Assembly: GCF_000008305.1 (NCBI RefSeq) | Contig: NC_006055.1 | Location: 360,001-392,000 of the forward strand | From: Mesoplasma florum L1 | GTDB lineage: Bacteria; Bacillota_I; Bacilli_A; Mycoplasmatales; Mycoplasmataceae | Direction: 5' to 3' | Length of the DNA: 32,000 nt | Part shown: positions 15,139 to 20,155 of the stretch, one piece after another | How positions within the stretch are numbered: position 1 is the first letter of the stretch | How the letters are laid out: each line of letters begins with the position of its first letter | Notes under the pieces: model-generated | Seen by the model: the letters and a program-made list of their open reading frames with translations, nothing else | Told to the model about the DNA's origin: nothing | Database searches by the model: none | Position numbers and translations under genes: made by a program

Positions 15139-15170
15139 AAAAACTAGAAGATATTAACTTCTAGTTTTTA
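15139..15170. terminator. Bidirectional rho-independent terminator shared by the convergent PTS and HEPN genes
   Basis: 11-bp stem: aaaactagaag (15140-15150) pairs with cttctagtttt (15158-15168). A-rich sequence lies 5' and T-rich sequence 3', so the hairpin works on both strands. The stop codon of the minus-strand gene (15168-15170) overlaps the stem. Confidence 0.75.
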
Positions 15171-15722
15171 TTTATCAAATTTAATTTTTACCTGATCAAC
15201 TAAATCTATTTCATTACCTGCCATATTTATTTCATTTTTAAAATTAGATTGATAGTTTTTAGTTAAGTTATTGTATAAGAAATTGATGTTCATTTGATTT
15301 TCTAAAATATTGTCTAAAATGATTGGTTTAAAGTGAGAAATCTGATTTCTTAATTCACGTATACCATCAAATTCATTACGAGAAATGATAGGTCTATCAT
15401 TGTATACACTTTGAATTTTATTTAAGTTTTTAAAATATAAATTTTGAGCTTCACTCATGTTAACGTTTTCTTTTAAAAAGAATTCTACATCTTTAACATC
15501 ACAATTCATTAAAACAGCTCTTATATATTCTTCAAAGAAACAAATATAACGATAAAGAATATATTTAAGTCTTAGATCATATTGAATAACAGCAGCTATT
15601 TTAGCATATTCATCAGTATTTAAATATTTAGCTATGTATTGATGATATTCAACACCTTTAAGTTCTTTATATTTATTATATGAATCTATTTCATTCTGAT
15701 TTTTAAATTTTATTTCAATCAT
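15168..15722 (-). CDS. HEPN-domain protein, Abi_2 (AbiD/AbiF)-like, 184 aa
   Basis: Intact ORF with a ggaga RBS. The Rx4H HEPN motif is ELRNQISH (R125-H130, nt 15333-15350). The upstream helix QYDLRLKYILYRYICFFEEYIRAVL resembles the conserved FDxxLRxxL...IE...R block of Abi_2 proteins (from memory, not searched). It is shorter than typical AbiD/F proteins of about 300 aa. Confidence 0.6.
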   Translation of the reverse strand: MIEIKFKNQNEIDSYNKYKELKGVEYHQYIAKYLNTDEYAKIAAVIQYDLRLKYILYRYICFFEEYIRAVLMNCDVKDVEFFLKENVNMSEAQNLYFKNLNKIQSVYNDRPIISRNEFDGIRELRNQISHFKPIILDNILENQMNINFLYNNLTKNYQSNFKNEINMAGNEIDLVDQVKIKFDK

Positions 15723-15788
15723 AGTATCTCCGATATCATAATTATCACATATTAAAACAAAAGTAGATTAATCTTTTAAATAAAGTAA

Positions 15789-15794
15789 TATAAT
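15789..15794 (+). promoter_or_regulatory. Candidate -10 box (TATAAT) for the TIR-like/TM gene pair
   Basis: Exact TATAAT lies 23 nt upstream of the ATG at 15817, in the 94-bp divergent intergenic region. Such matches are common in AT-rich DNA. Confidence 0.3.
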
Positions 15795-15816
15795 AAAATA
15801 AAAAATGGAGGAATAT

Positions 15817-16365
15817 ATGAATAAAAAAGTTTTTATTTCTTATTGGCATTCTGGTCATCAAATACAAAAAGATGAATTAGAAAAAACAGTAAGAGCTTCT
15901 AGAAATATAAATAATTCTGTTCACATTGGAGATATTAATGAAAATCTACCAACTGAAAGAATTTATCAAATAATAAGAGATGATTATTTAAAAGATAGTC
16001 AGGTAACAATTGTTCTTCTAGGTTTACATACAAATCACCGTAAGCATATAGATAGAGAAATTGCTTCATCTATTAGAGAAACATTTTTAAATCCAAGAAA
16101 TGGGCTTGTTATTCTTGTTATGCCTGAGATGGTGCCTTATGTTTCAGCAGGGACATGAAATAGTGAAAGAATATGTGGACCCAGAATTTCAAAAAATATA
16201 AAAAATAACTATGCAGTTTTTGATTATTATCACAACGTAATTAATAACCCTTCAAAATTAAACGAATTAATTGAAAAAGCTTATTTAAATAGAAATAATG
16301 TACTACCCAATAATTCTGATCCTTACAGAAGTAACAATACAAGCTGTACAATATGTGGGAGATAA
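15817..16365 (+). CDS. TIR-like domain protein, ThsB/DUF1863-like (182 aa)
   Basis: ATG at 15817 lies 5 nt after the ggagg RBS; the track start at 15805 overlaps the RBS. One in-frame TGA at 16156. The N-terminal strand KKVFISYWH and the core SQVTIVLLGLHTNHRKHIDREIASSI match the pattern xVFISY...VTxVLIGxxTxxRxWVxYEIxxSI that I recall for DUF1863/ThsB TIR-like proteins. This includes a Glu (E81, nt 16057-16059) at the position of the catalytic glutamate. TAA stop at 16363-16365. Confidence 0.7.
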
Positions 16366-16368
16366 AAG

Positions 16369-17202
16369 ATGAAAATAGAGATTAATAATTTATGATATTT
16401 AGTAATAATTTTAATTATTATATTATTTTTTATTTTTATTCCTTTAATAATAAAAAGTATTAAACTAAAATTAAAAAATAATAAAAACTTAAAACAAACT
16501 AAACAATCATTTAAAAATCTTTTAGATAATAAAGATTTAAGTTTAAATAATAAAATCTTTTTTAAAAGAGAAGATAAAAAATTAAATTTACATCTTAAAG
16601 AACTTATTGGTTCAAGTTCACTTTCAAGTTCAGTTAAAACAAATTTAGATTTTAAAATAGTTACATTTGAGATTCAATCAAATTTACCTGAAAAAATAAA
16701 TAATAGACAAATTTCTTGAAAAGCATTCACAGCGATTATAACTTCTGTTATAACAAATGATTCAAGAGGCGATACTGCAGAAGCAGTTAATTCAATTTAT
16801 CAATTATTTAAATTTTTAAAAAAACTTGTAATTGAAAGTGAGAATTCACCAATCATTCCATCAATGTTACTAAAAATAATAAATACAGATTTAAGGCCAA
16901 TATTAACTTTTACAAGAAGTTTTATGTTTTCTGATGCAGAAGGAAAAAATAAAGTTAAAAAAGATTTTGAAAACCAAGAAGAACAATTTTGAAATAAAAT
17001 TAATGATTTAAAAATTACTTTATTAGAGAGAAATGATTTAAAAATTTTATGTTTATTTTCTCAAAATTACATAACAACTGATGAAATTTATAATTTACTA
17101 AATATTAGCGATGAGTTGAAAAAGCAACTTATGTCTAAAAATAAAGAATCAAAAAAAATTATAGACGAAGTTGAAAAAGAAATAAAAAATTCAAAAATTT
17201 AA
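16369..17202 (+). CDS. Single-pass membrane protein of unknown function (277 aa), probably translationally coupled to the TIR-like gene; absent from the supplied ORF track
   Basis: ATG at 16369 lies 3 nt after the TIR stop. Frame 1 stays open to the TAA at 17200-17202, with three in-frame TGA codons (16393, 16717, 16990). The N-terminal TM helix is WYLVIILIIILFFIFIPLII, followed by a K-rich juxtamembrane stretch. The C-terminal region of about 240 aa contains no motif I recognise, including SIR2, Macro or SLOG signatures. A terminator follows immediately. Confidence 0.65.
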
Positions 17203-17215
17203 GTAAATTTTATAA

Positions 17216-17247
17216 ACAAAGAACTTATTTAAACAAGTTCTTTTTTT
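17216..17247 (+). terminator. Rho-independent terminator after the TIR-like/TM pair
   Basis: 9-bp stem: aaagaactt (17218-17226) pairs with aagttcttt (17235-17243). The loop is 8 nt and the T-run extends to 17247. Confidence 0.75.
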
Positions 17248-17295
17248 GTTTGAGATTTATTTGTTATAAAATATATAAATAAAAAGGGTGAGAAG

Positions 17296-19527
17296 ATGAA
17301 CGAATTATTAACTTTTAGAGGATATGTAGTTAAATATGGTTTTTCAAATGATGCTGGTTGAGGAACTGGTACATTTGCTAGTGAAGATAATTTAAAACAA
17401 CATATGAGTATTAAAGGATCAATAACTAGTATGGATAAAAAAACTTTATATGAAATAACTGGATATTTTGAAGAACATCCTCGTTATGGTAAAAGTTTTA
17501 ATGTTCAAACTTATCGAAAAGCACCTATTCACTCAACTAAAGAACAAATTAAATTTTTAGCAGGTCCTGCATTTCCAGGTGTAGGAGAAAAAACAGCTGA
17601 AATTATAATAAATCACTTAGGTGATAAAGCAATTACACAATTAGTTAAAAATATTGAATTATTAAATGAAATACCAGGACTTAATGCTATTTATATCCCA
17701 ATTATTAAAAAAGGAATAGAAGAGAATATCAGACAAGAAGGTCAAGAAAGATTAAGATATATCTTTTTTGAAAATAATCTTAAAACTTCAATATTAGATT
17801 GAATGGATAATCACTTTGATCAAGATAATGACATTATTGAAAGCATTTTTTCAAATTCATTTTTATCTTTTGCAAAAGATAAAGAAATTGCTTCATTTGA
17901 AGAACTTGATAAAGTTGCTGTTCATTTTGGATTAGAATTACACTCACCTGAAAGAATAGCTTATTGAGCTTGAAAGTTAGCTGATGATTTTTTATTTGCA
18001 TCTGGAGATACTTATACAAACAAAGATTATCTTTCAAGAAGTTTAATGCGTAAGTTAAAAATACAAGATACCGAATTACTTTTTGAAGGTATTTTATATG
18101 CTAAAGAAAAAGGTATTTTAAAATTAACTAAAAATCGTATTTATACAGAAGAATCTTGAAGAGAAGAGCAAATTATCGCAGATAATATAATAAAGCTTAA
18201 TATACCCACTAAAAATGCCAATAAAGAAGGTATTTCATGAGAAATAAATCAAATTGAAGAAGAAATAGCTTATGAAAATAAAATTAAAGATTTTAAATTT
18301 GATGAAAAACAAAGAGAAGCATTAGAATTATTTGCCAATAATAAATTATCTATTATTACTGGTGGACCAGGAACTGGTAAAACAACATTGATTAAAGGAA
18401 TAGTTAAATTGTTTAATCGTATGAGTGGTACTGAGGACTATGCAATAGCAACACCAACCGGAAGAGCTGCTGCTAGAATTAGAGAAACATACAAGAAATC
18501 ATATGCAACAACAATACACAAACTATTAGAAGCAAAAGAACTTAATAAGTTTCAAATTACACAAAATAATCCATTAAATCAAAAACTTGTAATTTTAGAT
18601 GAATGCTCAATGATAGATAATAAATTATTTGCAAGTTTTATACAATCTTGTGATCGAGTTAGAAAAGTAGTTTTAGTTGGTGATGCTAATCAATTACCAA
18701 GTGTAGGGTATGGAAATACATTTGCTGATTTATTAGAACTAGATTTTTTAAAAACAATTAAACTAGATACAGTTCATAGACAAAAGAATGGCAATGGTAT
18801 TGTTGATTTAGCTTATAAAGTGTTAAATGAGACATTAGAGATAAGTGATTTAGAATCTATGAGTAATGTTGAAATAAACTTTGATTATAATAATCAAAAC
18901 ACCATGAACAAAGTTACTGAAATTGTTGGTCAACATTGAGATGATTTAGAAAAAAGAGCTAATCATTTACAAGTTATTTGTCCAATGTATGGTGGTGAAT
19001 TAGGAATTGATGAAATCAATGCTCAAATCCAAAATGAATTTAATGAAAATGTTAAAGATAAAAAGAAAGTCTATGATCGAGGAGATTATCGATTTGTAGT
19101 TGAAGATAAAATCATGTTTTTAAAAAATGACACTGATTTAGATTTAGCTAATGGTGATGTAGGTAAAATAATTAAAATTAATTATGATGCTATAGGTAGA
19201 TTAAAAGATGTTTTAACTGAATTTAATGATAAAGAGATATTATTACAACCAAAAAACTTTAGTGATGTAAAATTATCTTATGCAACTAGTGTGCATAAGA
19301 CTCAAGGAAGTGAATATAATAATGTTTTATTAGTTATAGATAGTCCTAAATTTAATTCAGGCTTTATTAATAAAACATTAATTTACACAGCAGTAACAAG
19401 AGCAAAAGATAAAATAGTTATTTTAGGTGATAGTGATTTATTCTTTAATGCAATTAAAATAACACCACCTAGAAGAAATACAACACTTATTGAAACTATG
19501 CTAGAAAAGAGAGAAACAAATGGGTAA
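17296..19527 (+). CDS. recD2: RecD2-type SF1B ATP-dependent DNA helicase (743 aa)
   Basis: ATG at 17296 follows the RBS aagggtgag. The frame-1 pieces (track ORFs 17404-17802, 18388-18939 and 18985-19527) join across TGA. There is an N-terminal OB-like region and a HhH segment (AGPAFPGVGEKTAEII). The Walker A motif is ITGGPGTGKTT, with LVILDECSMID, VLVGDANQLPSVG, the SH3-like insert DKIMFLKNDTDLDLANGDVG and YATSVHKTQGSEY...YTAVTRAK. Confidence 0.9.
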
Positions 19528-20155
19528 AAAACAAACGTATTTAAAATATTTAGCAACAGCTTCAGGATTATTCTTTTTAAGTTCATTATTGGTTAAATAT
19601 TTTGATTTTAAAAAAGGTGTGTTTGAAGGAAATACAACAGCTTTATTAATAACAGAAATCATTTTATTTTTAATTGGTTGTTTATTATTAGGATTTTATT
19701 GATTTGTTAAATTTTATGATTTAAATAAAGAAAAAGAATATGTAATGACTAAAAAAGAAAAAATTTATTTTCTTAGTTCTTTAGGTTTATATTCATTAAG
19801 TTTAATTTTAACTATGATATTTATTATAGCTGCTCATAATATTGTTAATATAACTACATTGTTTTTTGTAATGATAGTATTTATATTATTAGGTTTAATA
19901 GTAGGATCTGTATTTGAAATGATTAGTCGTTTAGGATATCAAAGCTATGTAGCCAGAAAAGAATATGAACAAGCACAAATAATTAAAAAAGAACGTATCA
20001 AAAAAATGATTAGCGAAGATAAAAGTATAACTGAAGAAGAAGCTAAAACTATAGTTAGTACAAATAAAAAAAGAACAAAAGAAGCTGAAACATTATTGAA
20101 AGCTGATATTGTTAAAAAGAAAAAAGAAAAAGACACTAATCCTTTTAAAGATTAA
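19520..20155 (+). CDS. Hypothetical 4-TM membrane protein with a K/E-rich C-terminal tail (211 aa)
   Basis: Track ORFs 19520-19702 and 19745-20155 are in the same frame and join across the TGA at 19700. The ATG overlaps the recD2 stop by 8 nt. There are two similar 2-TM halves followed by a charged tail. I recognise no family. Confidence 0.55.

Follow-up and report, generated by a model that had tools for sequence, protein, structure and literature searches.

A TIR gene and a co-transcribed membrane-protein gene of Mesoplasma florum L1 form an accessory pair for which a Thoeris-like role is proposed

In an open reading frame track of Mesoplasma florum L1, a stretch of 1.2 kb downstream of a TIR gene appears empty, which raised the question of whether the region carries a gene at all and, if so, what its product does beside the TIR protein. 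The window analysed here is the 32,000-nucleotide stretch of contig NC_006055.1 from position 360,001 to 392,000 (assembly size 793,224 bp), and five- and lower-digit coordinates refer to it. The first-pass annotation had placed in this region a 277-codon frame with TGA codons at 16393, 16717 and 16990, and had described it as invisible to the track. The frame and the empty stretch were both found as described, and the features of the gene and its neighbour are as follows.

16369..17202, plus strand: mfl321, the target gene; 277 codons, 834 nt, encoding a single-pass membrane protein
15817..16365, plus strand: mfl320, the ThsB-type TIR gene; 182 aa, Pfam PF08937 ThsB_TIR
16357..16361, plus strand: Shine-Dalgarno-like GGGAG, read from the sequence, 7 nt before the mfl321 ATG and within the end of the TIR gene

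With translation table 4, mfl321 is a single open reading frame of 277 aa on the plus strand, in which the three TGA codons encode W9, W117 and W208 and are the only codons that differ from table 11. With table 11, no ORF of at least 60 aa is present on either strand between 15805..16158, itself a truncated TIR fragment under that table, and 17404..17802. The gene is thus absent from the track because the track treated TGA as a stop. TGA plainly encodes tryptophan in M. florum L1, where it occurs 1924 times against 73 for TGG in the 339 ORFs of 300 aa or more, and the long genes of the window are all broken up when read with table 11 but intact when read with table 4; ORF tracks for this genome must use table 4. 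The description of the gene as invisible holds for the table 11 track, but not for the public annotation, which already has mfl321 (peg.320, YP_053562.1) as a hypothetical protein at 376369-377202 (Baby 2018, PMC5893858, Data Set S1), with coordinates and length identical to those of the 277-codon frame. It is listed there as "Not mapped / Unknown", with no function, family or link to TIR or Thoeris. Hence mfl321 is not a new gene; what is new here is its family, the TIR linkage, the boundaries of the cassette and the functional proposal.

The possibility that the frame is non-functional, being either open by chance or a decaying pseudogene, was weighed against several lines of evidence. At the local composition (47% A, 34% T), the probability that 277 codons are free of TAA and TAG is 2.4e-12, and none of 2000 shuffles had an open stretch of more than 131 codons. 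The first-pass annotation had proposed codon usage and codon-position statistics as a check, and these gave a frame-specific signal: the codon-usage log-odds is 0.425 in the frame and at most 0.144 in the other five, where the long genes of the genome have a mean of 0.577 (sd 0.155), and the GC content by codon position (26/22/8%) descends as in the genes of the genome. The overall GC content of 18.7%, very low against 27% for the genome, would suit a non-functional frame, as would the frameshifted or stop-bearing copies that are common in relatives (G005, G042, G520 and several copies in a Spiroplasma-like genus). Stops or frameshifts in relatives had been named in advance as an outcome that would speak against coding. 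They are literally present in these copies, but do not refute the coding of mfl321, because they reflect the decay of an accessory cassette, and the coding assignment here stands. Against a non-functional frame, full-length homologues of 242-262 aa share the motifs of Mfl321, and the TGA codons at 16717 and 16990, two of the three, coincide with the family-conserved tryptophans W117 and W208.

RNA-seq and proteomics, which had also been proposed as checks, are both positive in published data. Mass spectrometry detected Mfl321 with two validated unique peptides and nine validated PSMs, at about 116 molecules per cell, and Mfl320 with four validated peptides at about 118 molecules per cell (Matteau 2020 EV6, PMC7745072), and the mean FPKM is 436 for mfl320 and 260 for mfl321 (Matteau 2020 EV5, PMC7745072). 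With mRNA and validated peptides at hand, a non-functional frame is already refuted by proteomics and we regard it as extremely improbable; mfl321 is a real, transcribed and translated gene. The constitutive expression of both proteins without apparent harm fits a latent system and fits a non-toxic role equally well.

The relationship of mfl321 with the TIR gene was then read from their transcription unit, the signals of which are listed below.

15789..15794, plus strand: -10 box TATAAT of TU_180 (Matteau 2020 EV1/EV3: 375788-375794), read from the sequence
15799, plus strand: transcription start site of TU_180 (Matteau 2020 EV1/EV3: gTSS 375798-375799)
17218..17248, plus strand: TU_180 intrinsic terminator; 9-bp hairpin with an AT-rich stem (17218-17243), then a U run

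TU_180 was mapped by 5'-RACE and RNA-seq to 375798-377256 (1458 nt) and contains exactly peg.319 and peg.320, with one transcription start site and one terminator (Matteau 2020 EV3, PMC7745072). The stop codon of the TIR ORF (16363-16365) lies 3 nt upstream of the mfl321 ATG, in agreement with the first-pass annotation, and the position of the GGGAG inside the end of the TIR gene suggests coupled translation of mfl320 and mfl321. The terminator claimed shortly after the ORF is also present: the hairpin with its U run begins 15 nt past the stop codon and folds with -9.8 kcal/mol (z -2.15), and the published map has the stem-loop at 377219-377241 (about 17220-17241 in the window) and the end of the unit at 377256 (Matteau 2020 EV3, PMC7745072). 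A simple terminator scan found no terminator after mfl321, because that scan requires at least three G-C pairs and the stem is AT-rich. Downstream, mfl323 (19520-20155, plus strand) encodes a small membrane protein and its start overlaps the recD2 stop; it is co-transcribed with recD2 in TU_181 of the published transcription-unit map and is tagged non-core and "E", with a miss probability of 0.105.

The product of mfl320 matched PF08937 ThsB_TIR in Pfam with an E-value of 3.8e-17 and 63 bits (cut-off 21.2) and the PADLOC ThsB models with E-values down to 3e-6; the genome has no other PF08937 match. DUF1863 is, as we take it, the earlier name of the ThsB_TIR family. The published annotation places mfl320 at 375817-376365 with the conserved domain "DUF1863" (Baby 2018, PMC5893858, Data Set S1). 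The longest ORF of the TIR gene would start at 15805, which is probably wrong; translation most likely begins at 15817, at the annotated ATG, which has GGAGG (15807-15811) in front of it and is 18 nt away from the transcription start site mapped at 15799. The TIR proteins linked to an Mfl321-type partner form a group of their own, with 37-46% identity to Mfl320 and the invariant motifs F-I-S-Y, V-T, L-G and D-x-E-I. Across six partner-linked TIRs, the glutamate of the D-R-E-I motif (E85 in ORF numbering) never varies.

The topology and fold of Mfl321 were examined next, and two parts of the gene are needed for their description.

16393..16452, plus strand: transmembrane helix codons of mfl321, N-terminal, residues 9-28
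16699..17061, plus strand: conserved helical core of mfl321, residues 111-231, from the AF2 model and an alignment of 30 sequences

The transmembrane helix followed by a soluble region that had been noted earlier was recovered as one N-terminal helix (residues 9-28). The Kyte-Doolittle hydropathy over 19 residues has its maximum of 3.44 at residue 10, and the same scan found no second hydrophobic segment; a single N-terminal hydrophobic segment is present in all full-length family members. The 22 residues after the helix carry a net charge of +8, which by the positive-inside rule predicts an N-out/C-in orientation with the remaining ~250 residues in the cytoplasm, including a helical domain of ~170 residues. 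An AF2 model built from a 5-sequence alignment was of moderate quality (mean pLDDT 60, pTM 0.51). It has a helix over residues 3-53, low confidence for the linker (32-101) and the C-terminal tail, and pLDDT 70-89 for residues 111-231, where it places helices at 111-128, 136-156 and 162-183, a hairpin at 186-196 and helices at 201-220 and 222-231. In the 30-sequence alignment, the near-invariant residues of this core are W117, N130, S132, G134, E138, A139, S142, F147, L168, K169, N172, R176, P177, L179, R183 and F207-W208, with W117 conserved in 28 of 30 sequences and W208 in 21 of 25. Nine of these, N130, S132, G134, E138, S142, K169, N172, R176 and R183, make up a polar and basic conserved cluster.

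No model of Pfam, PADLOC or NCBIfam matched Mfl321, and the same scans on nine family members and ten further members or core segments returned no recurrent family. The only sequence-profile match, PDB 1zke, had an E-value of 0.059 and was rejected as not credible. Foldseek searches with the AF2 model against the PDB and the viral models of BFVD gave nothing below an E-value of 0.3.

The distribution of the family was then followed in sequence collections. A word-indexed single-protein search returned Mfl321 itself only, and ten family proteins came out of a full HMMER scan covering 1.84 billion representatives, all of them K/N/I-rich and Mollicutes-like; three are full-length (253-262 aa; 33%, 30% and 35% identity) and the rest are fragments. 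A profile search added a 242-aa family protein of a Spiroplasma endosymbiont. Of 398 genomes of the order searched in six frames, 17 contained the family, which was concentrated in one large-genome Spiroplasma-like genus, 8 of the 11 genomes of which were positive, and tblastn against plasmid and phage collections found no family copy. In these searches the Mfl321 family is thus tiny and found only in Mollicutes-like sequences.

The neighbourhoods of these relatives bear on the claim that mfl321 encodes the partner of the TIR protein, which is borne out by the common transcription unit and by the pairing kept in other genomes. At least 13 genomes or contigs have a ThsB_TIR gene directly adjoining the partner gene, and four relative orientations occur among them. 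For the genomic loci, HMMs of both families were built here and run on all fetched loci, and the TIR gene was found directly beside the partner in G000, G463, G449, G487, G456, G442, G520, G042, G445, G320, G481 and G007; only in G484 and G005 was no TIR gene found within the 1.5-kb flanks of the partner. Two contigs with clean gene calls (L014 and L016) have the partner followed 19-29 nt downstream by a PF08937 ThsB_TIR gene. This order, partner then TIR, is the usual one; the genes are divergent in G445 and G320 and convergent in G007, and the order TIR then partner is found only in the M. florum L1 locus. The varying orientation speaks for a functional linkage rather than an inherited gene order. 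Pairwise identities of the partners and of the TIRs are correlated with a Pearson coefficient of 0.84 over 85 non-independent pairs, and in the Spiroplasma endosymbiont transposases of IS elements lie between the partner and the TIR gene.

Several of these loci have features of their own. Tandem duplication of the partner is frequent in the Spiroplasma-like genus. In three of its genomes (G463, loci L024/L041; G449, L025/L042; G487, L026/L040) two partner copies precede a single TIR gene; G463 and G449 each have one broken copy, and G487 has two open ones. The TIR ORFs of these three loci are 386-455 aa long, with an extra C-terminal region that is absent from Mfl320. Metagenomic contig L016 has an HNH endonuclease gene (1680-2537) next to the partner-TIR pair, and L014 has a gene of the ETX_MTX2 pore-forming-toxin family and an ABC ATPase upstream of it; both neighbourhoods look accessory.

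The boundaries of the pair in M. florum were defined by blastn against the loci of sister genomes, and the divergent neighbour upstream was considered together with them.

15757..17259, no strand assigned: accessory cassette of ~1.5 kb (promoter, TIR gene, partner gene and terminator), from blastn against sister loci
15168-15722, minus strand: mfl319, the divergent neighbour, with a weak Abi_2 match (E 0.05)

Against the loci upstream of recD2, homology ends at ~15752-15789 and resumes at ~17222-17260. Five sister genomes of the genus (G001-G004 and G006) lack the cassette at this site, and in them the mfl319 homologue is followed by ~42 nt of unrelated intergenic DNA and then by the recD2 promoter region, so that TU_180 and nothing else is missing. 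The sixth sister genome, G005, has the cassette at the same site with ~500 bp covering the TIR gene deleted, and its partner is a pseudogene broken by TAA stops. Patchiness of this kind, with precise indels, joint loss, duplication and decay, is typical of defence cassettes. In agreement with an accessory nature, mfl320 and mfl321 are both non-core among 13 M. florum strains (Baby 2018, PMC5893858). A role of mfl319 as a third component was rejected: each of the six sister genomes has the gene intact, also the five without the cassette, and it does not adjoin the pair in other loci and is transcriptionally silent. It contains an R-x4-H (HEPN-like) motif in ELRNQISHF. The gene belongs to the M. 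florum core and is non-essential (Baby 2018, PMC5893858), and despite a mapped transcription start site of its own it has an FPKM of 0.24 and was undetected by MS (Matteau 2020, PMC7745072).

In the published transposon screen neither gene of the pair received an insertion ("E"), with miss probabilities of 0.143 for mfl320 and 0.052 for mfl321, and both carry the tag "NC-E-0", that is, non-core, putatively essential and with no JCVI-syn3.0 homologue (Baby 2018, PMC5893858). The joint miss probability is ~0.0075 (0.143 x 0.052), and ~69 genes are expected to escape the screen by chance. The lack of insertions in both genes is unexpected for a dispensable defence pair, yet within chance; it is probably a matter of chance and could hint at a cost of disruption. 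Such a cost would suit a linked accessory module with no role in defence, for instance a toxin-immunity pair, an addiction pair, or NAD/ADPR signalling at the membrane that serves life in an insect or plant niche. The joint figure fits an addiction-like cost as a weak hint, and the restriction of the family to host-associated Mollicutes is also in line with such a module. Against it stand the number of genes expected to be missed by chance and the five sister genomes that live without the cassette, as well as the patchy distribution, precise presence or absence, pseudogenes, tandem duplication and IS neighbourhoods, which are typical of defence genes, and we consider a non-defence module unlikely. 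The tag matters for practice, since M. florum L1 is a genome-minimisation chassis and "NC-E-0" means that mfl320 and mfl321 would be kept in "essential-gene" designs; that five sister genomes have a precise empty site speaks for a dispensable, accessory cassette.

The reading that we favour, and hold to be rather more probable than the others together, is that mfl320 and mfl321 form a two-gene Thoeris-like anti-phage (abortive-infection) cassette with a new membrane effector. It rests on co-expression, predicted topology, conservation and linkage, and the effector role of Mfl321 is putative and proposed from context. In the proposed mechanism, Mfl320 would sense infection and convert NAD+ into an ADP-ribose-derived signal, which would bind the cytoplasmic helical domain of Mfl321, where N130, S132, E138, K169, N172, R176 and R183 are a candidate pocket. 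Binding might then lead to oligomerisation of the membrane helix and a breach of the membrane, by which the infection would be aborted. This manner of killing is modelled on the transmembrane effectors of Thoeris II, V, VI and VII, CBASS and Pycsar, and a single transmembrane helix is a weak basis for predicting pore formation. We know of no phage of M. florum. More tentatively, and falling a little short of probable, Mfl321 may found a new Thoeris effector family or type, so far restricted to Mollicutes, in which a single-pass protein would sense the TIR-made nucleotide, possibly an undescribed one, through its helical domain.

The roles of the two proteins could also be reversed, with Mfl321 acting as a membrane sensor or regulator (of phage adsorption, DNA entry or membrane stress) and the TIR protein killing by NAD+ depletion, as do TIR effectors of systems that work without a second messenger. 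Bacterial TIRs are effectors that deplete NAD+ in CBASS, Pycsar, pAgo and Avs (bioRxiv 10.64898/2025.12.03.692087), Mfl321 has no recognisable killing domain, and the conserved pairing fits this arrangement equally well. However, Mfl320 matches the ThsB-specific Pfam and PADLOC models, whose characterised members are signal producers, and a short stand-alone TIR beside a transmembrane protein is the canonical Thoeris layout; we consider reversed roles quite unlikely. The defence systems of the wall-less, genome-reduced Mollicutes are poorly charted. If the Thoeris-like cassette with Mfl321 as effector is the true reading, a TIR with a single-pass effector of no recognisable domain would extend the Thoeris repertoire. 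The effector would also be very small for structural work (~170 cytoplasmic residues), and the near-minimal model bacterium that expresses the pair would allow its dissection with few confounders.

The comparison with known systems was made against the recently extended Thoeris repertoire, which comprises 29 putative types, of which seven, V-XI, are newly verified (Yirmiya et al., bioRxiv 10.64898/2025.12.03.692087). Transmembrane effectors occur in several of these types and include DUF2270, DUF6650 with or without transmembrane helices, SLATT and ion channel proteins (bioRxiv 10.64898/2025.12.03.692087). None of the supplementary-table entries listed from that study is from Mesoplasma, Spiroplasma or Mycoplasma (bioRxiv 10.64898/2025.12.03.692087), and our literature search turned up no paper that connects Thoeris with Spiroplasma or Mollicutes. 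The general features of Thoeris are found in the M. florum pair, namely a ThsB-type TIR with the catalytic Glu, an adjacent co-transcribed partner and a pairing kept across genomes. An adjacent, co-transcribed ThsB-type TIR and membrane protein is the Thoeris layout, and a Thoeris-like mechanism is proposed for this reason.

The type II system consists of ThsB and a TM-Macro effector (ThsA/ThsC) with His-ADPR as the signal. It resembles the M. florum pair in combining a TIR signal producer with a transmembrane effector that has a cytoplasmic ligand-binding domain, and in membrane disruption and abortive infection as the proposed outcome. Mfl321 differs in having no Macro domain in the Pfam, PADLOC and NCBIfam scans, in having one transmembrane helix against two, and in a model that is all-helical except for one hairpin. 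The Macro fold is alpha/beta. Thoeris V (ThsF, DUF2270, with three transmembrane helices), VII (ThsH, SLATT) and X (ion channel) and the transmembrane effectors of CBASS and Pycsar are alike in logic, a cytoplasmic small-molecule signal activating a membrane protein, with cell death or arrest as the result. Mfl321 has no match to DUF2270 (PF10028), SLATT or the channel families, and has one hydrophobic segment against the three of ThsF.

Type VI pairs ThsB with ThsG (DUF6650, PF20355, some members with N-terminal transmembrane helices) and uses 2'cADPR as the signal (bioRxiv 10.64898/2025.12.03.692087). Like the M. florum pair, it is a two-gene operon of a short ThsB-type TIR and an effector with one or more N-terminal transmembrane helices, and the effector has an all-helical cytoplasmic domain of ~150 residues in a fold without a known match. 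The AF2 helices of DUF6650 (26-41, 54-74, 82-99 and 116-143; pLDDT 80) and of Mfl321 (111-128, 136-156, 162-183 and 201-231; pLDDT 60) are similar in order and length, and Foldseek of the DUF6650 model against the PDB gave no significant match, only generic four-helix bundles. PF20355 was not found in the six frames of the genome, nor in 19 family sequences or segments at E<=10. In hhalign, 9- and 30-sequence profiles of the Mfl321 family were compared with a single DUF6650 protein and with a 37-sequence DUF6650 alignment; the probabilities were 1.4%, 0.4% and 0.1%, and the global score equalled that of column-shuffled controls. By eye, three motif blocks of the core (16699-17061) are colinear with the DUF6650 consensus, an impression to which the profile-profile statistics lend no support. 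Homology of Mfl321 with DUF6650 was considered and is not claimed, as the profile comparison does not support it. The closest architecture to Mfl321 is thus that of type VI ThsG (DUF6650 with a transmembrane helix), with no sequence relationship detected between the two, and we class mfl320 and mfl321 as Thoeris-like, with Mfl321 representing a new effector family, and do not assign the pair to a numbered Thoeris type.
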